NCBI GenBank assembly: GCA_902785935.1
Contig: CADAAN010000006.1
Location: 4,309-68,308, forward strand
Source of the DNA: an uncultured Pseudomonadota bacterium
Lineage (GTDB): Bacteria; Pseudomonadota; Alphaproteobacteria; RF32; CAG-239
Direction: 5' to 3'
DNA: 64,000 nucleotides
Shown here: positions 16,039 to 61,548 of the stretch, piece after piece
How positions within the stretch are numbered: position 1 is the first letter of the stretch
Layout of the letters: each line of letters begins with the position of its first letter
Notes under the pieces: generated by a model
What the model saw: only the letters and a program-made list of their open reading frames with translations
Databases searched by the model: none
What the model was told of the DNA's origin: nothing
Position numbers and translations under genes: made by a program

Positions 16039-16236
16039 TTGACTTTTATTTTAAAGTATGCCATAATCAAAAGCGTAACCAAAATGGTTATGGTGTTTAG
16101 ATAACACATTCGAGTTAAGGCTCCTTTGAAAGAGGAGTTGTTGATATAAGGCAATTTTTGCTCGAATAAGACAAACTGTAACTCGACAGTTATCTAGCTC
16201 CTCCATTTTGAGATTTTTCAAGATGGATTTTTTTTT
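16039..16236 (+). promoter_or_regulatory. Leader family A, copy A1: promoter + ~160-nt structured leader + terminator
   Basis: TTGACT (16039-16044), 17 nt, CATAAT (16062-16067). The conserved GTAACCAAAATGG starts at 16075. Covarying helices are described in the findings. The hairpin TCCATTTTGA/TCAAGATGGA plus T9 ends at 16236, 30 nt before the LRR gene. Confidence 0.7.
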
Positions 16237-16265
16237 CGATGGTTTAAAAAATAAGGAGAAAAAAT

Positions 16266-17324
16266 ATGAAGAAATATGTTTGGGTTTTTGGACTTATTTT
16301 AAGTTATAATGCACAAGCTTATGATTATAATGATTGTTTTGGTGCAAGCGGATGTCAGCCCTGTCCGAATAGTACGGACGGCAAATGTTTTTATGCTGTT
16401 GAAGGCAGCAAAATGACAATTTATGGCCCGACATCAACCGAACAAAATGCAGATGGCAGCTTAAAAGAAACAACATCGATTCCGCGTTATGCCTTTACCA
16501 ACAGCGATAATGCCAGCAATTTGCCGGAAAATATCACTTCTCTTGAAATAACAGGTAATATCACAACCGTTGAAGGTTATGCTTTTTGCTCTGCCCCTCT
16601 GACAAATGTACAATTTCCTGAGACACTTGAAACAATATCGGAATTGGCTTTTTGGAACAATAATTTATCACAAATCAATTTTCCTAATTCGCTTAAAAAT
16701 ATAGAAGAAGGTGCTTTTAATTGGAATCCATTTTCAGAAATTAATTTACCCGACGGATTAATGACGCTGGAGGGGTTAACAGGTGTTCCCCTGGGGCATG
16801 TTGTTATTCCGGATTCGATTGCAGAGGTTAAAGATGCGATTTTTTCTTCAAACTATCGTTTGCAATCATTGGTTGTCGGCGCAGACACAATGCTTGGCAA
16901 TATTTTTACCTACACAACAGGGGCTGTTAGTGTGCAATTTGATAAATTCAAGATGTTTTGCGCAGAAAATAACGGCTCATGCACAACAGCTTTGCAAAGT
17001 GCCGGTGCAACACAAGAACAAATTGCGCAAATACTGATAAGTTATACAAAAGATGACGCAACAGGCGTTTATCAAACAAGTGACGGAAAATATTATGCCG
17101 ATGTCAATTTGATGGCAAGACAAATGGCTTGCGAAAATAAGCAAAGCTGTGAAATTGCCAGTGCTGATATTCGGGCAGGTCGTCCTTTTGATATGAAAGG
17201 AAAATCTTACGCATCTGTCGATGATTTCATTCAAGGAAAATATATTCCAAAGCGTATCTATACCATCGATGAAGCCAATCATGTCGCGGGCAAGACAAAC
17301 ACTTTTACGATTCGGTATCGATAG
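16266..17324 (+). CDS. Secreted BspA-type leucine-rich-repeat protein with conserved C-terminal tag
   Basis: Signal peptide (...SYNAQA-YD), Cys-rich N-terminus, LRR_5-like repeats (ITSLEITGNITTVEGYAF...). C-terminus KRIYTIDEANHVAGKTNTFTIRYR. Confidence 0.85.
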   Translation: MKKYVWVFGLILSYNAQAYDYNDCFGASGCQPCPNSTDGKCFYAVEGSKMTIYGPTSTEQNADGSLKETTSIPRYAFTNSDNASNLPENITSLEITGNITTVEGYAFCSAPLTNVQFPETLETISELAFWNNNLSQINFPNSLKNIEEGAFNWNPFSEINLPDGLMTLEGLTGVPLGHVVIPDSIAEVKDAIFSSNYRLQSLVVGADTMLGNIFTYTTGAVSVQFDKFKMFCAENNGSCTTALQSAGATQEQIAQILISYTKDDATGVYQTSDGKYYADVNLMARQMACENKQSCEIASADIRAGRPFDMKGKSYASVDDFIQGKYIPKRIYTIDEANHVAGKTNTFTIRYR

Positions 17325-17353
17325 AAAAAAATACATTATGAGCTTAAAACTTT

Positions 17354-17827
17354 TTAAAAAAACGGATTATAAGCCCATTGAAGCAGAGCTTGTCTTTGTT
17401 TTTTTCGGCAATCCAAGTCATACATCTGACAGTTCAAAAAAACTTGAGCTTTATGTCTTTTGAAAGCCTTCCAACGCTTGATTTGCAATTTATCAATTTC
17501 ATCAATACGGCGTCCCATATAATAGCGACAATACCACTGAAACCAACCGCGCGGATCAGGACCGATAATCCAACCGCGTTTTTGCCATTCTTGCAGGCTC
17601 ATACGTGATTTAACCCTAAAATAATTACACTCAACACACGGTTTTTCTTTGCTCAAAGGAGCATTTGTAAACCAATTTAAAGGAAATTCTTTGATGCAAT
17701 CATTTAAATAATGTCCCTCAAACACGCCGAGTTTAAGCATTTCATACGGAGTGAGCTCCGGGACAAAATCAGGTGCAAAGTCTTGTCCTTGCGGGGCGGC
17801 ATATGTATAGTGATAGCCTTTTTGCAT
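17354..17827 (-). CDS. Conserved hypothetical protein (GWFQWYCRYYMGRR motif)
   Basis: The track ORF 17354-17938 reads through the gapR terminator, so I moved the start to an internal ATG. 17827 is the chosen start, but 17848 or 17869 are also possible. Confidence 0.55.
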   Translation of the reverse strand: MQKGYHYTYAAPQGQDFAPDFVPELTPYEMLKLGVFEGHYLNDCIKEFPLNWFTNAPLSKEKPCVECNYFRVKSRMSLQEWQKRGWIIGPDPRGWFQWYCRYYMGRRIDEIDKLQIKRWKAFKRHKAQVFLNCQMYDLDCRKKQRQALLQWAYNPFF

Positions 17828-17893
17828 TTTATCTGAAACAACAATCATCAAGCAAAGATAATGGCGCATATTCGTTTTTTCAATAAATGCGAT

Positions 17894-17922
17894 ATAAAAA
17901 AAAGCCCCGCAAAATGCGGAGC
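17894..17922 (-). terminator. Terminator of gapR
   Basis: On the minus strand: GCTCCGC-atttt-GCGGGGC followed by T9. Confidence 0.6.
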
Positions 17923-17944
17923 ATATCAATTTTATCAAATCAAA

Positions 17945-18187
17945 TTACATATCAAGTGCTTTTCGATATGTATCAATCAAAAATTCCTGCTCATCGCGAG
18001 AGGCAGCGTCCATCTTGCGCAATTTTAAGATGGCGCGCATAATTTTGACATCAAATCCGGCACTTTTTGCCTCAGCAAAAACCTCACGGATATCTGTTGA
18101 GATTTCTTTTTTATCTTCTTCCAATTTTTCAATTCTTTCGATAAGCGAACGCAATCTGTCGCTTGCAATACCACCGACTTCGGCCAT
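17945..18187 (-). CDS. gapR: GapR (DUF2312) nucleoid-associated DNA-binding protein
   Basis: 80 aa. SDRLRSLIERIEKLEEDKKEISTDIREVFAEAKSAGFDVKIMRAILKLRK is typical of the alphaproteobacterial DUF2312 family. Confidence 0.85.
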   Translation of the reverse strand: MAEVGGIASDRLRSLIERIEKLEEDKKEISTDIREVFAEAKSAGFDVKIMRAILKLRKMDAASRDEQEFLIDTYRKALDM

Positions 18188-18330
18188 TTTTTTCCTCCGT
18201 ATAAAATATGGTTAAACTTTTTTTCTGAGCTATGAGATAACAAAAAAAACAAAGTTTGACAAGAGATATTTTTGAATTTTTTTTTGTTTGATTGAGCTTT
18301 GAAGCATTTAAAACCAAAAATTATACCCCG

Positions 18331-18367
18331 CCCGTCAAATTTTGCTTGACGGGTTGTTTCTTTTTTT
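18331..18367 (+). terminator. Terminator-like hairpin in the 5' region of the second aas paralog
   Basis: CCCGTCAA (18331-18338) pairs with TTGACGGG (18346-18353), followed by TTGTTTCTTTTTTT. There is no plus-strand gene upstream of it. Confidence 0.35.
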
Positions 18368-18404
18368 ATACAAACCGATATATAGATAACAACGGAGAAA
18401 TATT

Positions 18405-20579
18405 TTGAAAAACTTTGTGAGATTTTGTCTGCGTACGTTCTTTTATATCTTCAAGGTCAGATGCAACATCAAGTTTGACTTGAAGAAATTGCCTAAAAAA
18501 GGTGTTTATGTTTCAAACCACGTGTCTTATTTAGACCCGATTTTGCTCTTTGCCTTTTTGCCGGGCAATCCGATTTTTGCCTTAAACGGGCATTTGTATC
18601 GTCGAAGATTTATCCGTTTTTTGATGAAAACGGCTGATATTGTGGAATTTAATCCGATTGAACCGTCTGATTTGAAGGATTTAATCAATAAGGTGAACGA
18701 TAATCGTCTTGTGGTGATTTTTGCCGAAGGACGTATCACCGAAAGCGGCGGCTTGATGAAGATTTATGAGGCGCCGGGGCTTTTGGCGGACAAAACCAAT
18801 GCACCGATTATCCCGATTTGGATTGAAGGTCCGCAATATGGTTATTTTTCAAAGACAAAAGATAAATTGCCCCACAGACCGCTTCCTAAAATGCTGATTA
18901 CGGTCGGCAATCCGAAACCCTTAAAGCTTAAAGATGAGCTTCGTCGTCAGCGTGACCACTTAAGCAATGAAGTGTATCATATTTTGACGGATATGCAGTT
19001 TTCAATTACCTACAATCCGAATATTTCGATTTTTGCACAGCTTGTCAAAACATCTAAAGTATATTCAAAAACGGGCTTTTTCTTTAAACGTCCGATGGTG
19101 ATTGAAGATATTAACCGCAAACCGATGAGCTATAAGGATTTGTTGCTCCGTGTTTATTTACTCGGTAAGTTTTTTAAGAAAAAAGCCGCGCATATGGAGC
19201 ATGTCGGCTTGATGTTGCCGAATACAATCGCGGCTGCGGCAACGTTTTTGGGGTTATCCGCGTATGAGCGAATCCCTGTCATGCTGAACTTTTCAGTAGG
19301 TGCCAAAAACCTGATTTCAATGTGCAAAACAGCGGAAGTAAAGCTTGTGATTACGTCAATCGCCTTTATTAAAACGGCAAAAATGGAGCCGGTGATTGAA
19401 GTCTTAAAATCAAATGGTATCGAGGTCTTTTATCTTGAAAGTTTGGCTAAAAAATTAGGGATTATCAGCAAATTGGGTGCCATGCTTCGTTATAAAACAA
19501 AGCGTATCCCGCACCGTCACGGCGGCAACAGAAAAGCGGCTATTTTATTTACGTCAGGCTCTGAAGGTGCTCCGAAGGCCGTTGTTTTAAGCCATGCCAA
19601 CATTATCTCTAACATCAAACAAGTTACAACGGTCGAAACAATCAATATGAAGGATTTGGTCTTTAATGCCATGCCGATGTTCCACAGCTTCGGACTGACA
19701 ATCGGTACATTGTTCCCGCTTTTAGAGGGGGGCAGGGTGTTTTTGTATCCTTCGCCGTTGCATTATCGCGTGATTGCTGAATTGATTTATGAGCTGGGTG
19801 CGACAATTTTGTTCGGGACAGATACCTTTTTCAGAGGTTATGGACGAATCGCGCATCCGTACGATTTTTATAACGTTCGGTTTATGTATGCCGGTGCTGA
19901 GGCTGTTAAACTTGATACGCGTAATTTGTTTATGGAGCGGATGGGCGTGCGCATTATGGAAGCATACGGTGTGACGGAATGTGCGCCGTTTGTGGCAGCC
20001 AACAATCACGTTTACAGTCGATTCGGCTCAATCGGCAAAATTGTGCCGGGGATTGAGTATAAGTTAGAGCCTGTGCCCGGGATTGAAAAAGGCGGAGAGC
20101 TTGTCGTTAAAGGTCCGAATATTATGATGGGCTATATCATGCCTGATAAACCCGGGGTTTTGGTACCCTTAAAAGACGGCTGGTATCATACGGGTGATGT
20201 GGTTGAAATTGATGAAATCGGCTATGTCTTTATCAAAGACCGCATCAAACGCTTTGCTAAAATCGGCGGTGAGATGGTGTCCTTAAATGCCGTACAGGAT
20301 ATGGTTATCAAGGCTTATGAATGGATGGGGCCTGACTTTAGTTATGGTATTGTTTCCGTACCGCATGAAAGCAAGGGTGAGCAAATCGTCTTGGTCACGA
20401 ACAACAATCAGGTCAAACAGGAAGTTTTGCATGACTATATCAAAAACAATGGTATGTCTGAGCTGTTTTTGCCTCGAACCATCCTGTATCATGAAAAAAT
20501 TCCGGCCTTTTTGACAGGTAAAACCGATAACGTTACCTTGAAAAAAGAAGTGATGGAAGAATTGGGCTTAAATAAATAA
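18405..20579 (+). CDS. Second Aas-like acyltransferase / acyl-ACP synthetase paralog
   Basis: 724 aa with NHVSYLDP and FTSGSEGAPKAVVLS. Collinear with the 9998-12169 protein and roughly 60% identical by eye. TTG start with GGAG 7 nt upstream. Confidence 0.8.
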   Translation: MKNFVRFCLRTFFYIFKVRCNIKFDLKKLPKKGVYVSNHVSYLDPILLFAFLPGNPIFALNGHLYRRRFIRFLMKTADIVEFNPIEPSDLKDLINKVNDNRLVVIFAEGRITESGGLMKIYEAPGLLADKTNAPIIPIWIEGPQYGYFSKTKDKLPHRPLPKMLITVGNPKPLKLKDELRRQRDHLSNEVYHILTDMQFSITYNPNISIFAQLVKTSKVYSKTGFFFKRPMVIEDINRKPMSYKDLLLRVYLLGKFFKKKAAHMEHVGLMLPNTIAAAATFLGLSAYERIPVMLNFSVGAKNLISMCKTAEVKLVITSIAFIKTAKMEPVIEVLKSNGIEVFYLESLAKKLGIISKLGAMLRYKTKRIPHRHGGNRKAAILFTSGSEGAPKAVVLSHANIISNIKQVTTVETINMKDLVFNAMPMFHSFGLTIGTLFPLLEGGRVFLYPSPLHYRVIAELIYELGATILFGTDTFFRGYGRIAHPYDFYNVRFMYAGAEAVKLDTRNLFMERMGVRIMEAYGVTECAPFVAANNHVYSRFGSIGKIVPGIEYKLEPVPGIEKGGELVVKGPNIMMGYIMPDKPGVLVPLKDGWYHTGDVVEIDEIGYVFIKDRIKRFAKIGGEMVSLNAVQDMVIKAYEWMGPDFSYGIVSVPHESKGEQIVLVTNNNQVKQEVLHDYIKNNGMSELFLPRTILYHEKIPAFLTGKTDNVTLKKEVMEELGLNK

Positions 20580-20593
20580 GCCCAACCTGCTTT

Positions 20594-21493
20594 TTATCTG
20601 TACCTGATTTTGACCGAATTGACTTTGCCTGCGATGGCATTTGCTTCATCGATGGTGTAGATACGCTTTGGGATATAATCTCCTTTTTGCATCGCGGAAA
20701 TTGAGGCATAAGTTTTCTCACCGATACGATATTTCCCGTCAGGTGTCTTAGAATAATGAATAATTTTCGGGTTTTTACCCGTTTGAAGCGCTATTCTTGA
20801 ACATACCTCTTCGGAAGCCGCACAATATAGTTTTTGAAGGTTTGTGTTTGTAAAAGCTTCATCATCAATATTTGTCACACTATTCGGAATAACAAGTGTT
20901 TCAAGTGTTGAAATATCAGCAAGAGACGTCCAACCGATTGAGGTTACACCTTCAGGGATTTCCAGATTTTTAAGTTTTGTTCCGACAAAAGCTCTATCAG
21001 GAATTTCTGTTTGAGCCTGCCCAAGCATCAAATAATCTATTTTTGTTGCCGCAAAACTCCAAGCACCGACATATTGAAGATTTAGAGGTGTATTAATTTC
21101 TTTTAATAAATCTGCACCCTGAAATGCAGCACCGCCAATTTGTTCAATAGAATCCGGCAAATCAATACTGCTGATTTTTGTATAAGCAAGTGTATAACTA
21201 CCGATATTGGTTAAAGAATCCGGCAATGAGACACTTCGAATAGTTTCAAGTTTTTCAACCCATGGTGTTCCCGGCCTTTGGTTTTTAGAATCCCATTCGT
21301 AATTTGTCATTTTTCCGACAGGTGCATTTTCATCTTTGGCTTCAATTGAAAAAAGACCTGTCTGCTCATTTAGTCTGGCAAGGCAATTAGCGCCGCAATC
21401 CCAACAATTGATGTTTAAATCATCACCGCAAGTATTGACTGCTTTAGCTTGAGAGCTCATTGTCAGTAAAAAAAATAAAATCCATTTTCTCAT
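20594..21493 (-). CDS. Secreted BspA-type LRR protein with conserved C-terminal tag
   Basis: Signal peptide (..SSQAKA-VN), Cys-rich N-terminus, LRR_5 repeats. C-terminus KRIYTIDEANAIAGKVNSVKIRYR. Confidence 0.85.
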   Translation of the reverse strand: MRKWILFFLLTMSSQAKAVNTCGDDLNINCWDCGANCLARLNEQTGLFSIEAKDENAPVGKMTNYEWDSKNQRPGTPWVEKLETIRSVSLPDSLTNIGSYTLAYTKISSIDLPDSIEQIGGAAFQGADLLKEINTPLNLQYVGAWSFAATKIDYLMLGQAQTEIPDRAFVGTKLKNLEIPEGVTSIGWTSLADISTLETLVIPNSVTNIDDEAFTNTNLQKLYCAASEEVCSRIALQTGKNPKIIHYSKTPDGKYRIGEKTYASISAMQKGDYIPKRIYTIDEANAIAGKVNSVKIRYR

Positions 21494-21511
21494 ATTTTTT
21501 CTCCATTATGC

Positions 21512-21711
21512 AAAATAAAAAACCGTTTAAGATAAACCAAAAACGGAGGAGCTAAACGAACTGCACTAAATCAGTTAAGCTTATTCGAGGTATTAACCCT
21601 TATATCACTTACTCCTCTCTAAAGGAGTATATTTTTAGTGCAAGTGTCGTTTAAACACCGCAACCATTTTGGTTACGCTTTCATTTAAGCATATATCAAA
21701 ATACTTGTCAA
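21512..21711 (-). promoter_or_regulatory. Leader family A, copy A2: promoter + structured leader + terminator
   Basis: Minus strand: TTGACA (21711-21706), 17 nt, TTAAAT (21688-21683). GTAACCAAAATGGTTGCGGTG starts at 21676. The terminator CCGTTT/AAACGG plus T-run ends near 21512. Confidence 0.7.
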
Positions 21712-21846
21712 GATGTTTTTAGCCTCTGTCACAATCGGCAACAAAATGTGCATTGATAATTGGGGCTAACGCGGCAATATCAGTTGATATATCTGAAAAT
21801 CATTTTATAATCAGCGTATGTTTTTGAACTTTGGAGAACTTTAAAT

Positions 21847-29406: not shown

Positions 29407-30540
29407 CTAACGATATCGAATCGAGAAGGTGTTTGTTTTGCCCGCCACCTGATTCGCCTCATCGACGGTATAAATGCGCTTGCCCTCATAGCCGATAATC
29501 TTGCCATCTTCATAAATGGCCGTACTTCCATCGGCTAATTTTTTAGAGTATTTAACTGCCATAATGTCAGCAAAGTCATTCGGGTCAAGCCCTGCCGCCT
29601 CAATATTTCTTTGGCACTTAGCGACAGATCCGGCACACTGTATTTCTATGTTGCTTATATCAAGGTTATCGAAAGGAGAATAAATTCTGTCATAACTAAA
29701 AAATACTTCACAGCTATCCATTTCATATGTACAGCCGGCTTCTAAAGCTTTACTATAAAGTTGTGTATAATCTTCTTCGCTCATATGGCTACGGTTATTT
29801 TCTACATTTTCTAAGCTGTAAAAATCATCTTCTATCACATATCTGCTGAATGCAAAATTAAAATCATCTGATACTGTGATTCTTTCAAGATTTTTAATAC
29901 CCTTAAAAGCACCTTCATCAATATACTCAACCGAATCTGGCAATGTAAGGCTTATCAAACCTGACATACCCATAAAAGCATCTCTCTCTATATTTGTAAC
30001 CGAATCCGGAATAGTAAGATTAGTAACGTTTCTCATATACGCAAATGCAGTATCTTCAATATTTTTCAGTGAATTTGGTAAAGTTAAATTTGTAACAGCA
30101 GTAACATCATAAAATGCACCGCTACCGATATCTTCCACCGCATTACCGATTGTTAAATTTGTTACGTTAATCATATTACTAAAAGCACGATCACCAATAG
30201 AAACCACAGAATCTGAAATTTCAATGGATGTAGCATTTGTAGCTTCTCTAAAAGCATTATTTCCAATTGTCGTTATACCTTTTTCTACAACAACAGAGGT
30301 GATATCTTCGCGAATAGCATGCCATGGCATACTGTAATGATACCAACCAGAATAATTCTTATTTTCAAAATCATCCATAGCACCAGTGCCGGAAATAGTC
30401 AAAATACCGCTATCCGTATCCAAGCTCCAATAGCAATTCTCGCCGCATTTTTTGTAGCCGCTGTTTGTACCAATAATATCTGCTTTGACGCCTGAGGATA
30501 ACAAAATAAATCCCATCATCAGAATACATTTATTTTTCAT
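29407..30540 (-). CDS. Secreted BspA-type LRR protein with conserved C-terminal tag
   Basis: Signal peptide (..SSGVKA-DI) and about 7 LRR_5 repeats (TNLTIPDSVTNIERDAFMGM...). C-terminus KRIYTVDEANQVAGKTNTFSIRYR. Confidence 0.9.
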   Translation of the reverse strand: MKNKCILMMGFILLSSGVKADIIGTNSGYKKCGENCYWSLDTDSGILTISGTGAMDDFENKNYSGWYHYSMPWHAIREDITSVVVEKGITTIGNNAFREATNATSIEISDSVVSIGDRAFSNMINVTNLTIGNAVEDIGSGAFYDVTAVTNLTLPNSLKNIEDTAFAYMRNVTNLTIPDSVTNIERDAFMGMSGLISLTLPDSVEYIDEGAFKGIKNLERITVSDDFNFAFSRYVIEDDFYSLENVENNRSHMSEEDYTQLYSKALEAGCTYEMDSCEVFFSYDRIYSPFDNLDISNIEIQCAGSVAKCQRNIEAAGLDPNDFADIMAVKYSKKLADGSTAIYEDGKIIGYEGKRIYTVDEANQVAGKTNTFSIRYR

Positions 30541-30564
30541 AATTTTTTCCCTTTTAAAGATGTT

Positions 30565-30864
30565 AATATAAAAAAGTTTAACCGCGCCTTTTTAAGTGCG
30601 GCGGGGAGTGAAGAAATCATGTAAACCTAAATGACTCTTGCAACCTTTAGAATAACTCTTGTACATCCTTTGCAAGCTCCCCAACCAAAACTTTGGGGAT
30701 AATCGGCATTTTATACAAAAACACCTTCAAAACAAACAGTGTTATCCGTCACTGAGGTTTACAAAAGCTTCTTCAAAGCTCCGCACCCAATACATAGGCA
30801 CTAAATGATAAGATTTCTCCCATCACTTAAGATTTATTAGAACACGTTTTGATTTAATTGTCAA
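30565..30864 (-). promoter_or_regulatory. Leader family B, copy B1: promoter + ~255-nt structured leader + terminator
   Basis: Minus strand: TTGACA (30864-30859), 17 nt, TCTAAT (30841-30836). Conserved blocks and covarying helices are shared with 41695-41952 and 61258-61513. A hairpin plus T-run lies near 30571-30606. Confidence 0.7.
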
Positions 30865-40815: not shown

Positions 40816-41673
40816 TTAGCGATACCGAATCGAAAAAGTGTTTGTCTTGCCTGCAACTTGATTGGCCTCATCGATGGTGTAAATGCGCTTTGGTGCGTAA
40901 TGTTGATTGTAAATATCATTTGGGGAACTGTAAAACCTTCCGTTATAATAATAACCTGTTGAGTATTTTTGATAAAATTTAATTTTATCGCCAATTTCTT
41001 CATCGTCTAAAAGAGCCTGACAACTGGCATTTGTGTCTTCGCAATAAATAGCCAAAGATTCTGACAATGCTTTATTTATGGAATTAGTAAGCATTTTTTT
41101 TGTAATCATGGTCGAACCGGATATGGTTAAAGATTTCAATTCCGTGCCGCCTAATGTCCAATCTTCATCTTCAAGAATAACATCTTTGGGTAATACAATA
41201 TCTTCAACTTTTGTACGATTAAAATTAGCCCCTCCGATAAAAGTCAGACTATTTGGTAAATTAATTTTTTCAAGTGATTGAGTATCATTAAAAGCACCAC
41301 CCGAAATCTTTTGAAGTCCTTCGGGTAAAACAGCCTCTCGCAAATCAAACAAATATTCAAAAGCAGAAGAACCAATTGATTTAAATATTTTATCACTTGA
41401 TTCGTTTTCGATAACGACTTTATAAATTTGTGAAGAATAGGCTCCCCAATCGGCTGTATTATGGCACCATGGGTCACAGCTGTGACTATAATTTTTCATA
41501 TCACCATAACCTTTAATGGTTAATGTATTCGTGTTTTTATCAAGTGTTGCTGTACAACTATCATTTGAGGTTGCCGCACAGTCAAATGTACAAATATCAC
41601 TGTTATCACAAAGTGTATCAGCATATGTATTAAAAGCCGTAAATATACAAAAAATATAAATTACTTTTCTCAT
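40816..41673 (-). CDS. Secreted BspA-type LRR protein with conserved C-terminal tag
   Basis: I placed the true start at ATG 41673 (MRKVIYIFCIFTAFNTYA-DT, with GGAGAA 7 nt upstream). The 67-codon N-terminal extension in the track ORF runs through the conserved leader RNA. C-terminus KRIYTIDEANQVAGKTNTFSIRYR. Confidence 0.85.
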   Translation of the reverse strand: MRKVIYIFCIFTAFNTYADTLCDNSDICTFDCAATSNDSCTATLDKNTNTLTIKGYGDMKNYSHSCDPWCHNTADWGAYSSQIYKVVIENESSDKIFKSIGSSAFEYLFDLREAVLPEGLQKISGGAFNDTQSLEKINLPNSLTFIGGANFNRTKVEDIVLPKDVILEDEDWTLGGTELKSLTISGSTMITKKMLTNSINKALSESLAIYCEDTNASCQALLDDEEIGDKIKFYQKYSTGYYYNGRFYSSPNDIYNQHYAPKRIYTIDEANQVAGKTNTFSIRYR

Positions 41674-41694
41674 ATCTTTTCTCCAAAATTTATT

Positions 41695-41987
41695 AAACGA
41701 AAAAACCACTCTAAAATGAGCGGCGGGGAGTAAAAGAATCATGTAATGGAAAATGACTTCCGTAACCTTTAGGTCAAAACCTTGAACATACGCCACGGAC
41801 TCCCCAACCAAAATATCGGGGATAAGCATTGTTTTAAAATAAAAAAACAACACTAAAACAGCGTTATCTCTCACTGTCCATTACAAAAGCTCTTTTAAAG
41901 CCCCGCACCCTTTTCGGGTACTTGATAGAAAAAGCCAAAACCTTCCTATCTGATTTATATTATTACATATCAAAAACATCTTGTCAA
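41695..41987 (-). promoter_or_regulatory. Leader family B, copy B2: promoter + structured leader + terminator
   Basis: Minus strand: TTGACA (41987-41982), 17 nt, AATAAT (41964-41959). Conserved blocks as in B1 and B3. The terminator CCGCTC/GAGTGG plus T5 lies near 41697-41726. Confidence 0.7.
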
Positions 41988-42025
41988 GAAATTTTAAAAT
42001 ATTTTAATACGTGATTTGGCTGTGA

Positions 42026-42213
42026 ACGTAAATAAAAGCTTAGAATGAGCTAGATGCGACGGAAGCTCTTTTACGAAGTGTACAAAAGAGGTTGTATACG
42101 TAAATAAAAGCTTAGAATGAGTCAAGTACGACGTACGGCCGCTTGCGCAGTGTACAAAAAGGGTACATAAGCAAGCGGCCGCACAAGTAATTGGCCATTA
42201 TAAGCTTTTATTT
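42026..42213. repeat. Nested repeat element: 72-bp tandem duplication plus an inverted terminal copy overlapping the nusG stop
   Basis: ACGTAAATAAAAGCTTAGAATGAG occurs at 42026-42049 and 42098-42121. GTGTACAAAA lies 52 nt after each. The inverted copy TAAGCTTTTATTT is at 42201-42213. There is an internal GC-rich hairpin GGCCGCTTGC/GCAAGCGGCC (42137-42180). Confidence 0.6.
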
Positions 42214-45086: not shown

Positions 45087-45986
45087 TTATCGATACCTTA
45101 TTTTGAAAGAATTAACCTTGCCCGCGACGGCATTCGCCTCGTCGATGGTATAAATGCGGATATCGGCACGAGCAGGAACAGATGGCAAGACAGATGGAGA
45201 AACAGTTCCTGATGCTGAAGCAATTTTTGCTCTGCAAGAAGTCTCCGTTTCGCAACCCTCTTCCGTTCCTCCCAACATCATTTTTGCTGCTGAAGAGTAA
45301 TAATTATCACCAACTTTATATACCCCATCTTCTTTAGTATATTGTTCAATTTTTGACGTCCCATGGCCTTTACAAATATTAACATCTTCGCAAAAAAGTT
45401 TTGTGTTGCTGGCAAACGGAAAGTTAACAATTGTTGTTCCTCTGCTAATAATGACATTGTTCAAGGATTCATTTTGAAAGCTACTTCCAAAAGCATCCTG
45501 ATTAATTTTCGTTACACCGCTTAAATCAATATCATGCAGGTTGGTTGTATATGTAAAAGCGCCACTTCCAATTTCTTTAACTCCTGTAAAATCCACACTC
45601 GACAAAGCAGATCGCGAAAAAGCGGTTCCGCCGATTGATGTAACACCGCTTGCAAAAGCAAGTGAGGTTACACCTTGAGGAAGCATTGATGTCCCATAAG
45701 TGTCATCTGCAAAAGCTGATCTCGGTACTTTGTATGTGAGATTGCCGTTTGAATCTGTTGAAGTAATTGATGACCCCTGAATGGTCATTTTTCCGTTATC
45801 AATAGTGTAGTATGTGAGCATATGAGAGGCATAGCTACTGGCTTGCGACAAACATCCTTCGCCATAAGTTGAAACACAAGCCTGACAAAATGTGTTCCCT
45901 TCAGGGCACTCAATTAAAGCAATGGAAATTTTTGAAAATGAAACTGTTGCTACTAATGCCGAGGTTAAAAAAATATTTCTAGTCAT
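45087..45986 (-). CDS. Secreted BspA-type LRR protein with conserved C-terminal tag
   Basis: N-terminal signal-like segment, Cys-rich region, LRR_5 repeats (VTSLAFASGVTSIGGTAFSRS...). C-terminus IRIYTIDEANAVAGKVNSFKIRYR. Confidence 0.85.
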   Translation of the reverse strand: MTRNIFLTSALVATVSFSKISIALIECPEGNTFCQACVSTYGEGCLSQASSYASHMLTYYTIDNGKMTIQGSSITSTDSNGNLTYKVPRSAFADDTYGTSMLPQGVTSLAFASGVTSIGGTAFSRSALSSVDFTGVKEIGSGAFTYTTNLHDIDLSGVTKINQDAFGSSFQNESLNNVIISRGTTIVNFPFASNTKLFCEDVNICKGHGTSKIEQYTKEDGVYKVGDNYYSSAAKMMLGGTEEGCETETSCRAKIASASGTVSPSVLPSVPARADIRIYTIDEANAVAGKVNSFKIRYR

Positions 45987-46020
45987 AACTTTTCTCCTAT
46001 TTTTCTTATTTACACTGTTG

Positions 46021-46212
46021 AAAAAATCACTTCAGAAGATATCCGAAGTGGGAGCTAGAAAACTGTATACATTCAGTCAGACTTATTCGACATTTCAAAA
46101 CGCTTATATCATCTACTCCCGGTAAAAGGAGCGATATGTATAAGGTGTTTTCTAGACACCGCAACCATTTTGGTTACTTTTTTATTTTCACATAAAAAAC
46201 GTAGCTTGTCAA
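46021..46212 (-). promoter_or_regulatory. Leader family A, copy A3: promoter + structured leader + terminator
   Basis: Minus strand: TTGACA (46212-46207), 17 nt, GAAAAT (46189-46184). GTAACCAAAATGGTTGCGGTG starts at 46177. The terminator CACTTCGGA/TTCTGAAGTG plus T6 ends at 46021. Confidence 0.7.
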
Positions 46213-52252: not shown

Positions 52253-52843
52253 TTAGTAGTCCCCTCTGATTACATGATAAAACCGACAGCTATCTAAACT
52301 TGTTTCACATGCCTGACAGCCCTCAATGATATCAGACATTTTGACCTCCGTAATACCTCCTGTAGGCCAATATATATCCTTACCGCCCACCTCTATCAAT
52401 CCGCCTGTCCACCATTCAACCGGGACGGCATTTTCCCATCCTGCAGAGGCAAAAGCAATACACGATTTTGAATCGGTGAAATGGATAACAAATTCACCCT
52501 GAACATATGAACCACCGCTATCATAAAAATCCATATTCAGCGTTCCTATCGGAAGTTTGCAAGCCTCGTCTCCATTAAGATCCGTTGTTACTTGACAATC
52601 CGGTAAAAGCCCGTATTGAATTAAATCTTCGGCATCACGAATCTCAATACCTTCTCCCCAGCCTTTTTGCTCCAACTCCATAAAGCGTTGAAGAATTTGA
52701 TTATATGTGTCAATTGTTTGATTCATTTTGTATTTAAACATTGCGGCAGAATAACCTTTGAGTGCGCCCGCCGACAACACACCGACAATAGCCAACACGC
52801 CCAGCATTTCAACCATACTTCTACCTATTTCATTAATTTTCAT
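52253..52843 (-). CDS. Type IV pilin / pseudopilin-like protein
   Basis: The N-terminus MKINEIG-RSMVEMLGVLAIVGVLSAG has a prepilin-type signal with Glu at +5, followed by a hydrophobic helix. Confidence 0.75.
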   Translation of the reverse strand: MKINEIGRSMVEMLGVLAIVGVLSAGALKGYSAAMFKYKMNQTIDTYNQILQRFMELEQKGWGEGIEIRDAEDLIQYGLLPDCQVTTDLNGDEACKLPIGTLNMDFYDSGGSYVQGEFVIHFTDSKSCIAFASAGWENAVPVEWWTGGLIEVGGKDIYWPTGGITEVKMSDIIEGCQACETSLDSCRFYHVIRGDY

Positions 52844-52863
52844 TGGTTATACCTTTCTTTCAT

Positions 52864-53061
52864 AAAAAAAATTCCGTTTTATATAACCAAAAACGGAGGA
52901 GCTAACTAACTGCCATTGTACAGCTTGCTTTATTCGCGCATCACTAAAATACCTTATATCAGCAACTCCTCATCAAGGAGCTATACAATGGATGTGTTAG
53001 TTAAACACCGCAACCATTTTGGTTACATCCTGATTATTTCATACAAAAGCATAAAAGTCAA
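52864..53061 (-). promoter_or_regulatory. Leader family A, copy A4: promoter + structured leader + terminator (pilin-like gene)
   Basis: Minus strand: TTGACT (53061-53056), 17 nt, AATAAT (53038-53033). GTAACCAAAATGGTTGCGGTG starts at 53026. The terminator CCGTTTT/AAAACGG plus T8 ends at 52864. Confidence 0.7.
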
Positions 53062-55490: not shown

Positions 55491-56090
55491 ATGGAAAAGA
55501 TTAAATCTGCTGTCAATGAAGCAGCGTTTATTCAAAGCGCTGACAGAGAAACTGTCAAGGAGTACATCTCCAGACACCCCCTCCACATAGAAGCTGATAT
55601 CCAGCTCCTTGAACGTGGAGATAAGGAACTTATTAAGCTTTACATCTCGCAGTTTTGCTTTTTGAGCAAGGCTGAAATCAAGCTCATCGAGCTTAAAGAT
55701 AAGGAACTTATTAAGCTTTATATCTCTCGCTGCGGCTTTGAGGATGAGGCCAAAATCAAGTTCCTGGAGATGAAGGATGTGGAGCTGATTAAGTTTTATA
55801 TCTCGAAACGGCCGTTTTTCAAAGCGGACATTAAGTTCCTTGAGCTCGGAAACAAAGAACTTATCGAGCTTTACATCTCGAAGTACAGATTTGAGGCTGA
55901 AGCGGAAATCAAGCTCATCGAGCTTAAAGATAAGGAACTTATCAAGCTTTACATCAAAAATCATCGCCTGAGAGATGATGCTGAGATGAAGCTCCTCGAT
56001 CTGAAGGATATGGAGCTGATTAAGATGTATGCCTTATATCAAGGCTTTTCTGTAAGCACGCAGATAAACATCTGTGAACTTATTGTTTAG
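55491..56090 (+). CDS. Tandem-repeat protein (six ~26-aa helical repeats, consensus AEIKLIELKDKELIKLYISxxxFxxE)
   Basis: 199 aa. There are near-identical 45-50-nt DNA blocks at about 55673-55722 and 55905-55953. GC-rich codon usage. Has its own TTGACA promoter (55420-55425) and terminator. Confidence 0.65.
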   Translation: MEKIKSAVNEAAFIQSADRETVKEYISRHPLHIEADIQLLERGDKELIKLYISQFCFLSKAEIKLIELKDKELIKLYISRCGFEDEAKIKFLEMKDVELIKFYISKRPFFKADIKFLELGNKELIELYISKYRFEAEAEIKLIELKDKELIKLYIKNHRLRDDAEMKLLDLKDMELIKMYALYQGFSVSTQINICELIV

Positions 56091-56109
56091 AATTTTCTCA
56101 TTTACAATG

Positions 56110-56144
56110 TCCCCGCTGCAGTAAAAAGCCGCGGGGATTTTTTT
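56110..56144 (+). terminator. Terminator of the repeat-protein gene
   Basis: TCCCCGC (56110-56116) pairs with GCGGGGA (56131-56137), followed by T7. Confidence 0.7.
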
Positions 56145-56206
56145 AACTGAAATTTATTCTTTTTATGCTTAAACTTGATGTATCTGAACTTTAAGGAGTC
56201 ATCATT

Positions 56207-56614: not shown

Positions 56615-56733
56615 GAAAAATGCGCCATGAATTATGCCGGAACAATCTCGTTTAACAATCGGTTGCGCCAATTTTATATTTGCAAAATATAAAAAAATAA
56701 CAAAAAATCTCTATTGTTTCAGATCCGCGCTGA

Positions 56734-57753: not shown

Positions 57754-57920
57754 ATCTTAAAATCTCGCTTTATGAAAACAAAACAAGCCTTGCCTGTCAA
57801 CATAATTATTGACAGTTTGTGCAAAATTTCATATCATCTGAAAAAAAGGAAAACCTCATGAATTTGTAGAAATCACGAAAGACACCATTATTTATCCGAA
57901 AATTTTGGAGAAGATATAAA

Positions 57921-58523
57921 ATGAAAATGGAATATATCATTTTTGGAACAACTTACGGATTTGCCAGCACCGAAACAACTGATGAAGAACAACGCTATAT
58001 TGAGCAGTTTTATCATGATGATGAGGGAAAGAGAACGTACGTGCACAAAAGGCGCAACAACAAAGTTTATTACACACGCACAATTTACGGCGATAAACAA
58101 AACCGGTTTTGCGACTCGAAGGGACGTCCGGGTGGCTTTTTTGGCATGACCATCGGTTTTGACGGACAATATTGCCGCGATTTTAACAAAATCAATGCGC
58201 TGATGGACAGAGTTTATGAAAACTTTATAAAAAAAGGATTCATCACAGAAAAAAACGGCACACACCAATATCATATTGCTGATTTTCAAACATATAATGC
58301 GCAAATACACGAGATTATGGCAGATGCCGTACAGTATGCAAACTTAAGCTCTGCCGATTTGGAAAAATTTACCTTTCACGAGCTTAAAGGCACATATCGC
58401 TGTCACCCAAATGATATGCCTTCGCTCAACAAGGCGCTGATGGATATGCCATATCATATTGATATTTCAGAAAAATATCCGACTCAGGCTATGCTGCGTG
58501 AAAAATTATCAAAAGTTAAATAA
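57921..58523 (+). CDS. Hypothetical protein
   Basis: 200-aa ORF with GGAG 8 nt upstream and a TTGACA-17 nt-TATCAT promoter at 57817-57845. Confidence 0.55.
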   Translation: MKMEYIIFGTTYGFASTETTDEEQRYIEQFYHDDEGKRTYVHKRRNNKVYYTRTIYGDKQNRFCDSKGRPGGFFGMTIGFDGQYCRDFNKINALMDRVYENFIKKGFITEKNGTHQYHIADFQTYNAQIHEIMADAVQYANLSSADLEKFTFHELKGTYRCHPNDMPSLNKALMDMPYHIDISEKYPTQAMLREKLSKVK

Positions 58524-58637
58524 TCGTCCAAATTCAGCCAAAGCAAAAAAAGTTGAAAAAAAACTAAAAAAAATATTGACAAAATAAAAAAAACGTGATA
58601 ACTTGAGGACAATAGAGTTCAATTTAGGAGAAAAAAA

Positions 58638-59234
58638 ATGAGTAAAATGAAAACAGCCGTTGTAACAGCACTAGTCACAGCTGCTGCTTTATTAGCCGCC
58701 AAAGGAGCTCAGGCTCAGACAAAAAGTGACGGCCCGCAAAGAGTGAATAAAGAAGCCACGGTCAATCAAAATAAAGCAAACGCTCAAGAGCTACTTAATG
58801 TAATGAATACGTTTTTGGGTAATCTTCCTGACATACATCACGATAATGGTGAAGTTTTAAAGCAAAGCGAATATGAGCTTACCGATTCCGGACTTTGGAG
58901 AACAGCAATGATTAATGTCGGTTCGTCTTATATATGCTTTTCAGATACTAGGGATGTTGATTATTCGAACCAGGAGGTGAGTATAACCATAGGTAATGAA
59001 GGTAGCAAGGACTACGTAGCCTATAGTGTCACGGATAATGGAATCAATAAGGTAGGATCTGAAGTACCTCTTTCAAACAAAAGCTATAATGAATTGGCAA
59101 GTATTATGGCAGGCTTTTTCAAGAGAGACGGACAAGATAAAACCCCTGAAGTTAAAGACTTCTGCTCAAATCACCAATCGACTTTGGATTTATCTCCTCT
59201 TCTCATAGCTAAGGCTTCGCAGAGAGGTAAGTAA
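58638..59234 (+). CDS. Secreted hypothetical protein
   Basis: Signal peptide (..AAKGAQA-QT) and a strong RBS (AGGAGAAAAAAAATG). Confidence 0.6.
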   Translation: MSKMKTAVVTALVTAAALLAAKGAQAQTKSDGPQRVNKEATVNQNKANAQELLNVMNTFLGNLPDIHHDNGEVLKQSEYELTDSGLWRTAMINVGSSYICFSDTRDVDYSNQEVSITIGNEGSKDYVAYSVTDNGINKVGSEVPLSNKSYNELASIMAGFFKRDGQDKTPEVKDFCSNHQSTLDLSPLLIAKASQRGK

Positions 59235-59265
59235 TTTCCCGCGCATAACGCAGAGATTTTTATCA

Positions 59266-59296
59266 AAAGCAACCCGCCGGCTATGCCGGCGGTTCT
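59266..59296 (+). terminator. Terminator after the 58638 gene
   Basis: CCGCCGGC-tat-GCCGGCGG hairpin. Confidence 0.55.
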
Positions 59297-59299
59297 GCA

Positions 59300-59880
59300 T
59301 TAACGGCTAAAAGCCTTTACCACTTGCAGCCCCTAAACGGGGCTGTTTTGCGTCTGACAGACGCAATCTGTTACTTCCTACCCCTCTGAAAGCTGGTCTT
59401 CCCTTAGTTGTTGTGATATATAGTTTTGTATCTTTTGGCTATCTTTACCTACCATATCCACATAGTACCCTCGACACCAAAATTCTCGATTTCGATATTT
59501 GTACCGCATTTGACACCACTGCTCGTATATCATTACCTTTTAAGAATCCCATAAAACTGGTGGTATCTCTACTAAATGATGTATATGATCCGGATAAGCT
59601 TCTCCTTCTATAATATTTACTCCTTTCCAGCTACATAACTCTTTTAATATTTTTACTATCTCCAGTCTTTTACTTCCGTAAAATACTTTTCTTCTGTATT
59701 TCGGCGCAAATACGATATGGTATTTACAATTCCAGCTCGTATGTGCTATACTTTTTACGTCATTTTTCATGATTAAATTCCTTATGTTTCTTGTTGCGTC
59801 TGCCAGACACTTCTTTCTAACTTAAGGAATTTATTTTTTCCACCCCTCGCTATAAGCTCTTTCGAACTACCAGCCTTGCC
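59300..59880 (-). mobile_element. Decayed IS200/IS605-family element
   Basis: Contains a frameshifted Y1-transposase gene. Subterminal hairpins: TTGCGTCTG-A-CAGACGCAA (59348-59366), CAGCCCC/GGGGCTG (59327-59345) and the related GCGTCTGCCAGAC (59796-59808). A 5'-UTR hairpin AAATTCCTTA/TAAGGAATTT (59775-59832) sits next to the start codon, as in IS200. Confidence 0.7.
59388..59770 (-). pseudogene. tnpA: IS200-type tnpA (Y1 transposase) with frameshifts
   Basis: The N-terminal 76 aa are intact (HTSWNCKYHIVFAPKYRRKVFYG...PDHIHHLVEIPP). The frame then breaks: SFMGFLKG is in the +1 frame, and VMIYEQ...YKYRNREFWCRGYYVDMVGKD is back in the original frame. Confidence 0.8.
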
Positions 59881-59994
59881 GGTGCTTTTCACAATATAAA
59901 GAACCGCGGGTGAGGAAACCCGCGGCGGATTACAATGTAATGAATTTTTTTAAAGATCATAATAATTTTTGGCAAATCCCACTAAGCTTTGCGC

Positions 59995-60609
59995 TTAGTA
60001 GAATTTCCAAGAAACCGTTGCTTGTTCGGTGCATGTAGCTACAGCACCTGTACCCGAAGCTCCGCCCATCGGATAAGGTTTACCCTCATCAGCACCTAGT
60101 ACTTTACCTTTGGCATAATTTGTACCGGTAGAAGCTTCAATTTCTACACCGATAAAACCCGAACCGGCACCCGAACCAAAATCAGCCGTTGCAAGTGCAA
60201 TGCAAGCCTCCTTAGGTAATCCTTTGTAACTGATTACAAAGGCTGTTGGTTTTGCATCACCAGTAATTGCTGTATTGACAGCAGAAATTGTATTTGAAGT
60301 AGCCATAGCTTCTAAAATTTGAACACTTCCTTTAAATGGGTTTGTTAAAGCGGCAGGAGATGTACCCATTACAGGCGGAACAATTCCTAAACTGACAGCT
60401 TGTGTCGCCAAGCCGGCGTAGTTACCCTGCTGTCCATACATTGTTCGGATGTTTGTCACAAGCATTGTGATTTGTTCCATTGTCGTGTTGAGTTTGTGTT
60501 TGAACATCGCTTTTGAATAGCCTGCCAAACCGCCGGCTGACAAAACACCGATAATCGCCAAAACACCAAGCATTTCAACCATTGAACGACCATTTTGATT
60601 ATTCTTCAT
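59995..60609 (-). CDS. Type IV pilin / pseudopilin-like protein (distal gene of pair)
   Basis: MKNNQNG-RSMVEMLGVLAIIGVLSAGG. The first ~65 aa are nearly identical to the upstream paralog. C-terminus ..VSWKFY. Confidence 0.8.
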   Translation of the reverse strand: MKNNQNGRSMVEMLGVLAIIGVLSAGGLAGYSKAMFKHKLNTTMEQITMLVTNIRTMYGQQGNYAGLATQAVSLGIVPPVMGTSPAALTNPFKGSVQILEAMATSNTISAVNTAITGDAKPTAFVISYKGLPKEACIALATADFGSGAGSGFIGVEIEASTGTNYAKGKVLGADEGKPYPMGGASGTGAVATCTEQATVSWKFY

Positions 60610-60648
60610 TTTTTTATTCCTTTATTAAACTGTTAAAAACTTATATGA

Positions 60649-61230
60649 TTAATAGAACTTCCAAATGATTGTGTTTTTTGCACCTGCACAATCACTAACT
60701 GCATCAGCCATTTCATACGCTTTTCCCTCAGCACGTTTGTTTGCAATGCCTGTACCAATGACTATAGAAGATCCATCTGCTGAGGCTGCTGCAGTACCTG
60801 TTTTATCGGCTATAACACCTACAAAACCTGAACCTGCGCCTGAACCAAAGTCAGACGTTGCCAAAGCAATACAAGCTTCTGTTGGTAAACCATCAAAAGC
60901 GACTGTAAATGATTCATTGTTTGTACCTGTAGCAACAATATTAACATTACCCTTAAATGGGTTTGTAAGTGTGGCTCCACTACCCATAACAGCCGGAACA
61001 ACACCAAGACTTGATGCTTCTGTATTTGTTAATCCCGCATAATTTCCCTGTGTGCCGTACATTGTACGGATATTCGTCACAAGCATTGTGATTTGATCCA
61101 TGGTGGTATTGAGTTTGTGCTTGAACATGGCCTTTGAATAACCTGCCAAACCGCCGGCTGACAAAACACCGATGATGGCAAGTACGCCAAGCATTTCGAC
61201 CATACTACGGCCGTTTTCGTTATTTTTCAT
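60649..61230 (-). CDS. Type IV pilin / pseudopilin-like protein (proximal gene of pair)
   Basis: MKNNENG-RSMVEMLGVLAIIGVLSAGG, Glu at +5. C-terminus ..IIWKFY. Confidence 0.8.
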   Translation of the reverse strand: MKNNENGRSMVEMLGVLAIIGVLSAGGLAGYSKAMFKHKLNTTMDQITMLVTNIRTMYGTQGNYAGLTNTEASSLGVVPAVMGSGATLTNPFKGNVNIVATGTNNESFTVAFDGLPTEACIALATSDFGSGAGSGFVGVIADKTGTAAASADGSSIVIGTGIANKRAEGKAYEMADAVSDCAGAKNTIIWKFY

Positions 61231-61257
61231 TTTTCAATTCCTTTTAAAAATTATTAC

Positions 61258-61548
61258 GTAAAACCGCCCCTAAAAGAGCGGTCGGAGAGTTAAACAATCA
61301 TGGATTAGAAAATGACTCCGACAACCTTTAGATTAAAAATCCTGAACATTCGCTACCGGCTCCCCGACACTTTTCGGGGATAATGTGCTATATTTAAAAT
61401 AAAAAATAACACCACATCAATACAGTGTTATCCTCACTGTCTAATCCAAGAGTTGTTTAAAACTCCGCGCCCGTCTCAGGCACTTGATAGAAAAAGTCAC
61501 CTCTTTCTATCCGACCATTATTTAACAACACAAATGCTTAATTGTCAA
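61258..61548 (-). promoter_or_regulatory. Leader family B, copy B3: promoter + structured leader + terminator (pilin-like operon)
   Basis: Minus strand: TTGACA (61548-61543), 17 nt, TTAAAT (61525-61520). Conserved blocks and covarying helices as in B1 and B2. The hairpin CCGC/GCGG plus T-rich tract lies near 61258-61285. Confidence 0.7.

Follow-up and report, generated by a model that had tools for sequence, protein, structure and literature searches.

Surface-Type Genes and Leaders of the Window

The 64-kb stretch of DNA analysed here (the window) belongs to an 89-kb contig of an uncultured alphaproteobacterium from a cattle-rumen metagenome (ENA ERZ28613383, scaffold_539). It carries five leucine-rich repeat (LRR) genes whose products share a C-terminal tag and two pilin-like units, and each of these seven units is immediately preceded, on the coding strand, by one of two structured leaders, here called family A and family B (Table 1). 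The two families represent one class of structured 5′ leader in two versions, and Rfam 15 does not contain it. We hold with high confidence that they are cis-acting structured leader RNAs with a terminator, of the riboswitch/attenuator kind, and we consider it probable that they act as conditional transcription attenuators, switching their genes on when a signal is present.

Profiles made from the regions upstream of these units and run over the 64 kb with nhmmer detected exactly four copies of family A (E from 1e-55 to 4e-58) and exactly three of family B (E from about 1e-88 to 4e-90), with no further copy of either in the window at E ≤ 1. The core patterns of the two families match four and three times, respectively, against 0.00 matches expected from 100 dinucleotide-preserving shuffles. 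This bears out a sequence-only reading of the window, which had proposed that structured leaders are exclusive to the seven surface-type units and that LRR-tag and pilin-like units each use both families. That reading placed its outer limits at the −35 boxes of A1 (16039) and B3 (61548). Pfam lists of the source contig agree with it in two further respects: the units are scattered among housekeeping genes (ileS, lptB, a kpsF-like gene, tig, gap, pgk, typA, nusG, secE and the Mla system), and no pilus or type II secretion system assembly genes lie in the window.

All five LRR-tag proteins match Pfam LRR_5 (BspA-type) with 42–170 bits, against a curated cut-off of 27.7, and all end in the common tag ...RIYT(I/V)DEANxVAGKxNxFxIRYR. 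The true start of the fourth gene is the ATG at 41673; the longer open reading frame (ORF) listed for it extends into leader B2. The tag is modular, as it also ends RHS-repeat proteins (L082:4025-5398), and it has no relative in Pfam, NCBIfam or PDB, a PDB search having returned only chance-level matches to ribosomal protein L1 (E ≥ 0.14). A profile of the tag alone returned only short fragments and was of little use. Having no relative there, this C-terminus of about 24 residues (RIYTIDEANxVAGxxNxFxIRYR) may be a new sorting or anchoring signal.

The three pilin-like proteins share the N-terminus GRSMVEMLGVLAI(I/V)GVLS, with Glu at +5 after the Gly, and thus show the type IV G/xxxxE motif and hydrophobic helix. 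The match to Pfam N_methyl is weak and below the cut-off (18.7 and 17.1 bits vs 21.2). The two pilins encoded in tandem are homologous to type IVb pilins: they score above the curated cut-offs of Bundlin and PilS and match TcpA (8uhf) at E 3e-5. The third protein, encoded at 52253-52843, has no Pfam family match and resembles the other two only at the N-terminus.

A Covarying Fold in Family A

A scan of the family A core pattern against one genome per GTDB species detected at least 106 loci, all of them in metagenome-assembled genomes (MAGs) of uncultured gut or rumen Alphaproteobacteria; among the matches listed, the hosts are human, mouse, rabbit, cattle, goat and deer, and 80 listed matches represent more than 40 different assemblies. 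The structure was examined in an alignment of 116 distinct sequences (A6), whose varying helices were not fixed by the search pattern. The proposed partners are paired in 94.2% of the pair cells, compared with 41–50% when partners are slid, and the covariation score reaches 0.406, a value that slid partners do not approach (at most 0.085) and that 0 of 500 shuffles attained.

Two long-range pairings hold distant parts of the leader together. The strand X follows a short GGUGU stretch and pairs with X′, which lies right before the C-rich segment seg3; six of these eight pairs show compensatory changes (for pair 79:207, AU 43, GC 42 and CG 17). The strand Y, upstream of seg1, pairs with Y′, the 8 nucleotides (nt) between an invariant CUG and CAG. 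At least seven contiguous Y:Y′ pairs form in 100 of the 116 sequences, with 99 distinct loop sequences, and the mean of 7.26 pairs falls to 5.06 when the loops are permuted among sequences. The CTG and CAG of this P3 region were fixed by the search pattern, and the P3 stem itself is unproven.

Local helices follow the same logic of kept pairing. P2 is 97.4% paired, with compensatory changes in four of its five pairs, and the base of the H1 stem is 96–98% paired over four pairs, each realised by two or three pair types in variable sequence. The internal-loop motifs of the P2 arm were fixed by the search pattern, and their invariance in the 116 sequences is not independent evidence; a profile search found them conserved among the seven window and L004 copies.

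One strand has two covarying partners. The segment seg2 covaries with seg3, which contains CUCC (pair 130:214 is GC 47, AU 26, UA 21 and CG 6), and the pairing of seg1 with seg2 also covaries. G-U pairs are frequent in the alignment (73:88, GU 67; 135:179, UG 93). As each of them would be a C-A mismatch on the opposite strand, the structure is strand-specific and belongs to the RNA of the transcribed strand.

Family B and the Common Architecture

The family B core pattern, scanned over metagenome contigs, detected 76 loci, mostly in rumen samples. In an alignment of 41 diverse sequences (A7), compensatory changes occur in 41 of the 56 proposed pairs, 94.4% of cells are paired (about 42% with slid partners), and none of 500 shuffles attains the observed value on any of five measures. 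Automatic detection of covarying columns was noisy, yet it indicated the same two long-range pairings. X is here a hairpin loop, again pairing with an X′ right before seg3, and the single-stranded Y pairs with Y′, the loop between GUCAU and AUGAU, through eight pairs that are all compensatory. P2 has 8 bp, every pair compensatory and 99.7% paired, and is accompanied by P2b; the three switch segments are UCCCCGA (seg1), UCGGGGA (seg2) and CUCCCC (seg3). A further complementarity, between the H4 loop GGAUAA and UUAUCC of seg1, is not claimed; by inspection, it is gone in a subgroup with a variant H4.

Both families present their elements in one order: X, Y, seg1, seg2, P2, Y′, X′, seg3 and terminator. 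We therefore regard A and B as two versions of one architecture. Family B adds the hairpins H2 and H4 and a variable H5, and the conserved core loops differ (GAnAUAAG/CGAAUAAG in A and GCGnAUGUWCARG/CUAAAGG in B). The nhmmer profiles of the two families do not detect each other, so that common ancestry is no more than plausible. The sequence-only reading had supposed two distinct signals, one for each family. This part of it finds no support here: the architecture is common and the differences amount to core loop sequences and extra hairpins, so A and B may sense the same cue or different cues.

Promoters and Terminators

Every leader of the window has a promoter-like site at a conserved position, composed of TTGAC(A/T), 17 nt and an A/T-rich −10 box, often with TG; a consensus promoter scanner lists those of A1, A3, A4 and B2. 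At the other end, 88 of 116 A sequences and 55 of 77 B sequences have a hairpin with a U-tail behind seg3. From the U-tract to the ATG there are 23–34 nt in the window copies, occupied only by the Shine-Dalgarno sequence. A gap of this size has no room for a second promoter, and transcription of the gene must then read through the terminator.

The 5′ arm of the terminator overlaps seg3 by 1–3 nt in 86 of 116 A sequences. Minimum free energy structures from RNAfold contain the seg1:seg2 hairpin together with the complete terminator. The RNAfold structure of A1 also pairs seg3 with the Shine-Dalgarno sequence, and given the complementarity in this predicted fold, translational masking may add to the control. 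A leader peptide was considered and rejected: the short ORFs that start in H1 of the window copies, by our own reading, are not conserved elsewhere.

Genes Under the Leaders in Related Genomes

The first downstream ORF was classified for 128 family A and 92 family B matches. LRR and/or tag proteins follow 25 of the 128 A leaders and at least 59 of the 92 B leaders, and pilin-like proteins follow 3 and 9, respectively. Small XRE/HTH-type (helix-turn-helix) proteins of about 56–113 residues follow about 76 of the 128 A leaders; their Pfam HTH_3 or HTH_31 matches are weak but consistent, and a single BLAST cluster holds 62 of them. HTH_3 proteins of 163–170 residues account for 6 of 128 A and 2 of 92 B matches, Cys-rich secreted proteins for 4 of 128 A matches, and the remainder of B includes singletons, among them a predicted membrane-protein ORF and a gene for a polysaccharide pyruvyl transferase. 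There are many leader copies per genome. The two families co-occur in the same genomes (e.g., L035 and L065), and the rumen genome RGIG5118 has family A leaders before genes of all three kinds, LRR-tag, pilin and HTH.

Seen from the side of the tag, a leader is present at 53 of the 54 tag genes with readable upstream DNA, in a sample that is biased since most loci were fetched through the leader. In L004 and L005, which were fetched through pilin proteins, each of the six annotated LRR genes has its leader. The LRR_5 gene that closes L008 shows no leader in the 143-nt gap upstream of it. About 13 pilin units have a leader, counting two behind a leader-controlled HTH gene, while five independent pilin units in related MAGs have neither A nor B. 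In this respect the pilin units are less consistent than the tag genes.

The regulon of LRR and pilin genes that the sequence-only reading had envisaged is consequently only part of the picture. The coverage of tag genes speaks for it, within that biased sample, and the position of most A leaders before small XRE/HTH genes speaks against it. That reading had also named the presence of leaders before many unrelated gene families as a ground for giving up the idea, and such families do occur to some extent (XRE/HTH, Cys-rich and pyruvyl transferase genes). Going by the genes found downstream, the regulon idea survives in a broader form, in which surface and secreted proteins would be joined by many small regulators.

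Some of these loci have features of their own. Two or three complete tandem A units stand before a single small HTH gene in L036, L054, L074 and L110 (e.g., L110:2779-3417), and in L036, the one case inspected, the second unit has its own promoter-like sequence. At L034:3630-4805 and L062:4784-6089, leader A is followed by a small HTH gene and then by a pilin-like gene, an arrangement that suggests regulator–pilin operons under leader A. In gut MAGs (L030:4655-5578, L042, L086:4947-5942 and L095), a family of Cys-rich secreted proteins with the N-terminus ...QCVATQDCATLGYTE... and no Pfam family match is found under leader A. Leaderless pilin-like genes include those at L005:9166-9379 and L008:9525-10000; one leaderless pilin-like gene adjoins a prophage-like lysis cassette with holin and lysozyme. 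A phage origin of the HTH-linked leader copies was rejected, both core patterns having 0 matches in 2.9 million viral contigs.

Proposed Mechanism and Its Alternatives

The leaders combine a structured domain supported by covariation with a terminator placed before the coding sequence and with the lack of a separate promoter for the gene, as known for riboswitches and attenuators. We propose the following course of events. Each unit would be transcribed from its own sigma-70-type promoter, and the transcript would form a scaffold held by X:X′ and Y:Y′, with the P2/P2b arm and its conserved purine-rich internal loop. On this scaffold seg2 (GGGGAG/GAGGAG) could pair either with the upstream C-rich seg1 or with the downstream C-rich seg3, the latter entering or abutting the 5′ arm of the intrinsic terminator. 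By default the local seg1:seg2 hairpin would form, the terminator would be complete, transcription would stop and the gene would be off. A signal that stabilises the folded core would favour the seg2:seg3 pseudoknot on the scaffold, which would remove or block the base of the terminator and let RNA polymerase read into the gene. How the switch is oriented and what kind of trigger it answers to are our inferences; a small molecule is the most likely signal, and the leaders would then be an orphan riboswitch.

Several observations weigh against this scheme or complicate it. By a simple criterion, about one quarter of the copies have no clear U-tail. In family B the terminator abuts seg3 (43 of 67 sequences, overlap 0 nt), and because it does not overlap, mutual exclusion is not evident there. 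In B, a third segment, CGGRG, is complementary to seg3 as well (R119:Y329 is GC 41, AU 20 and AC 13), and the pairing scheme in this family may be more complex than the one drawn here. No covariation is seen in the short stems Px and P3 (CUG/CAG and GUCAU/AUGAU). A fully nested fold given by RNAfold, where the X:X′ and Y:Y′ pairs line up as a single long helix with interruptions that encloses P2 and the seg1:seg2 hairpin, accounts equally well for both long-range pairings; in that frame it is seg2:seg3 that becomes the pseudoknot. Finally, co-regulation of the seven units is proposed from their shared leaders alone; their co-expression, and the existence of a module of pilus plus adhesins, we likewise infer.

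The alternative that survives best keeps the same attenuator RNA and replaces the small molecule by a dedicated RNA-binding protein, such as an antiterminator or an XRE-like factor, whose gene would lie elsewhere or be one of those under leader control. It would recognise the GAnAUAAG/CGAAUAAG loop of A or the AUGUWCARG/CUAAAGG loop of B. The evidence from structure and terminator serves it equally well, the conserved internal loops would seem to resemble those bound by proteins, the many small HTH proteins in the controlled set would permit feedback, and the many copies per genome recall T-box or PyrR-type systems. However, in the gene lists of the window and related loci, no gene for a candidate RNA-binding protein accompanies the leaders with any consistency, HTH_3 domains bind DNA, and the fold is larger and more knotted than RAT, ANTAR or PyrR sites are generally known to be. 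We regard a protein trigger as unlikely, although it deserves to be kept in mind.

The leaders might instead be a by-product of gene-family expansion, a 5′ untranslated region (UTR) carried along with its gene and at most serving constitutively in stability or translation, for example through masking of the Shine-Dalgarno sequence by seg3, as the RNAfold structure of A1 would allow. The LRR-tag and pilin-like families are indeed massively expanded. Yet the leaders precede unrelated families (LRR_5, pilins, XRE regulators, RHS-repeat and Cys-rich proteins, pyruvyl transferase), one protein family is served by both leader families, and the hundreds of compensatory changes found in more than 40 species show that the RNA fold is under selection. 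A terminator right before the coding sequence would, moreover, be senseless in a constitutive UTR, and we find this explanation improbable.

That the leaders are independent genes of trans-acting small RNAs, each with its own promoter and terminator and located upstream of protein genes by chance, is very improbable in our view. A promoter-like site and a terminator are indeed found at every unit, and many copies occur per genome, but orientation and position are fixed: the leaders lie on the coding strand and end 23–34 nt before the start codon. With only the Shine-Dalgarno sequence in that gap, the downstream gene has no promoter of its own. The variable segments, besides, pair within the molecule and not with a common target.

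Strongly disfavoured are DNA-level operator or promoter modules bound by a transcription factor, for which one could cite the near-perfect palindrome GTAACCAAAATGGTTAC that H1 forms just behind the −10 box in the rumen clade, but this operator was rejected because H1 has an entirely different sequence in other genomes and keeps its pairing, the helices tolerate G-U and not C-A, as expected of strand-specific RNA pairing, and conservation reaches 170–270 nt downstream of the promoter.

The conditional attenuator thus remains our preferred reading, and it can be extended. In a bolder version, which we offer tentatively and would not be surprised to see fail, A and B would make up a new superfamily of riboswitches in uncultured gut and rumen Alphaproteobacteria, as two classes of different specificity. 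The signalling molecule sensed by each would be a second messenger such as cyclic di-GMP (c-di-GMP) or a host or community cue, and in every genome the two would jointly turn on dozens of scattered genes for adhesins, pilins and XRE regulators, forming a global RNA-based circuit of surface remodelling. One genome that carries leader A also encodes a PAS-GGDEF diguanylate cyclase (L072:5121-6779, Pfam GGDEF E 8e-47). It follows that c-di-GMP signalling exists in the clade, which makes c-di-GMP a reasonable candidate ligand and no more than that.

If the attenuator reading is right, one multi-copy class of RNA switch, recorded in no database, governs a large part of the surface that a whole clade of uncultured gut and rumen Alphaproteobacteria presents to its host. 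That surface would comprise LRR adhesin-like proteins, type IVb-like pilins and other secreted proteins, and many small regulators would come under the same control. More than 100 distinct natural variants and a well-defined fold make ligand hunting, structure determination and tests in metatranscriptomes feasible now, and the identity of the trigger would show by which cue these bacteria decide to display adhesins.

Coordinates and Other Features of the Window

Table 1. Leaders, their sub-elements and the genes they precede in the 64-kb window.
Feature	Position	Strand	Remarks
Leader A1	16039-16265	+	Before LRR-tag gene 1; from promoter to base preceding ATG; nhmmer E 1.9e-55
A1 promoter		+	TTGACT-17-CATAAT with TG
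A1 H1 hairpin (GTAACC..GGTTAT)	16075-16091	+	Pairing of stem base kept
A1 X (TTAGATAA)	16097-16104	+	Pairs with X′ 16190-16197
A1 Y (TCGAGTTA)	16110-16117	+	Pairs with Y′ (TAACTCGA) 16179-16186
A1 seg1 (GCTCCTT)	16120-16126	+	Upstream partner of seg2, proposed anti-antiterminator (sequence reading, covariation, RNAfold minimum free energy structure)
A1 seg2 (GAGGAG)	16132-16137	+	Switch strand; pairs with seg3, alternatively seg1
A1 P2 arm	16138-16174	+	P2 5′ strand, GATATAAG, P2b hairpin, CGAATAA, P2 3′ strand
A1 P3 region	16176-16189	+	CTG, 8-nt Y′, CAG; loop pairs with Y
A1 X′ (TTATCTAG), then seg3 (CTCCTC)	16190-16203	+
A1 intrinsic terminator	16202-16236	+	Hairpin 16202-16227 and T9; 29 nt before ATG; overlaps 3′ end of seg3
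LRR-tag gene 1	16266-17324	+	352 aa; Pfam LRR_5 E 6e-21; tag end ...RIYTIDEANHVAGKTNTFTIRYR
LRR-tag gene 2	20594-21493	-	299 aa; Pfam LRR_5 E 1.7e-29
Leader A2	21494-21711	-	Before LRR-tag gene 2; nhmmer E 5.6e-57
LRR-tag gene 3	29407-30540	-	377 aa; Pfam LRR_5 E 2.4e-50
Leader B1	30541-30864	-	Before LRR-tag gene 3; nhmmer E 2.5e-88
LRR-tag gene 4	40816-41673	-	285 aa from true ATG; Pfam LRR_5 E 7.5e-14
Leader B2	41674-41987	-	Before LRR-tag gene 4; nhmmer E 4.1e-90
B2 promoter		-	TTGACA-17-AATAAT
B2 terminator	41724-41705	-
LRR-tag gene 5	45087-45986	-	299 aa; Pfam LRR_5 E 8.6e-11
Leader A3	45987-46212	-	Before LRR-tag gene 5; nhmmer E 9e-57
Pilin-like gene	52253-52843	-	196 aa; N-terminus GRSMVEMLGVLAIVGVLSAG common to all three pilin-like proteins
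Leader A4	52844-53061	-	Before pilin-like gene; nhmmer E 4.1e-58
Terminator after tandem pilin pair	59926-59903	-
Tandem type IVb-like pilin genes	59995-61230	-	60649-61230 and 59995-60609; Bundlin and PilS above cut-off
Leader B3	61231-61548	-	Before tandem pilin pair; nhmmer E 1.1e-89
B3 H1	61486-61511	-
B3 H2	61467-61483	-
B3 H3 with loop X	61451-61464	-
B3 Y	61440-61446	-
B3 H4	61423-61439	-
B3 seg1	61375-61383	-
B3 seg2	61360-61368	-
B3 P2	61352-61359 with 61318-61325	-
B3 P3 with Y′	61296-61317	-
B3 X′	61290-61295	-
B3 seg3	61284-61289	-
B3 terminator	61263-61282	-

Downstream of the pilin pair, a 760-nt gap (59235-59994) contains a fragment of an IS200-type Y1 transposase and a GC-rich terminator-like palindrome at 59262-59311, of which a second copy lies at 9952-10001. 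Between nusG and the B2 promoter (42018-42161), there are two tandem 72-nt repeats, 75% identical, each with a GC-rich hairpin. The ORF at 55491-56090 is made of 78-nt repeats, the peptide repeat having the form ...ELIKLYIS...EAEIKLIELKDK..., and it has no family match on record. Two paralogous acyltransferase/AMP-binding genes are found in inverted orientation at 9998-12169(-) and 18405-20579(+), with 72–76% DNA identity over parts. The beginning of the window, 1-9552, is low in GC (about 30% vs about 40% elsewhere) and encodes a phage-type integrase (8395-9552), AbiEi, HTH_17, HSP70-like, glycosyltransferase, APH-like, NUDIX and ATP-grasp proteins; a mobile or defence island has probably integrated here.

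Novelty and Comparison with Known Systems

The Rfam 15 library (4227 models, among them c-di-GMP-I/II, T-box, JUMPstart and PyrR) gave no match overlapping any leader at E ≤ 10 in a 46-kb region, and in the whole window only two tRNAs reach an Rfam gathering score. For a 241-nt leader taken from another genome, the search likewise found no family at E ≤ 10, the best score being 18.9 bits against a gathering score of 53. The literature searched contains no description of the leaders. A human-microbiome catalogue of RNAs (Fremin and Bhatt, PMC8040213) lists 100 unnamed candidates near HTH-XRE genes, HTH-XRE being the second most frequent domain neighbouring its candidate RNAs, and this catalogue may already contain the leader class.

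Among the known leader RNAs, the T-box is likewise a large multi-helix element with many copies per genome, a terminator right before the coding sequence and occasional tandems. It differs from the leaders described here in its Rfam model, which they do not match, and in its specifier and T-box sequences, of which none is evident in them; the genes downstream encode surface proteins and regulators instead of amino-acid functions, and the host is alphaproteobacterial. With JUMPstart/ops and RfaH, and with EAR RNA, the leaders have in common that they are elements of cell-surface genes. Those systems target distant terminators further down long operons, whereas the units described here are mostly single-gene, with a built-in terminator and alternative pairings, and JUMPstart gave no match in cmscan.

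The principle of a 3′ strand that pairs onto an upstream domain and thereby decides the fate of the adjacent platform is shared with SAM-II, preQ1-II/III, fluoride and ZTP riboswitches. In contrast with these, the leaders measure 170–270 nt and have two long-range pairings and a third alternative strand, seg1; their conserved cores are unrelated, and they match no Rfam model of these riboswitches.

In Clostridioides difficile and Vibrio, the c-di-GMP riboswitches (GEMM-I and GEMM-II) are found upstream of genes for type IV pilins and adhesins. The leaders of families A and B are unlike c-di-GMP-I/II in their helices, conserved nucleotides and double long-range pairing, and cmscan reports no match to these models at E ≤ 10. 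What they do share is the organisation: a structured 5′ leader with a terminator-type platform in front of pilin, adhesin and regulator genes, which recurs at many scattered sites of a genome, and the joint use of two leader classes by one genome.

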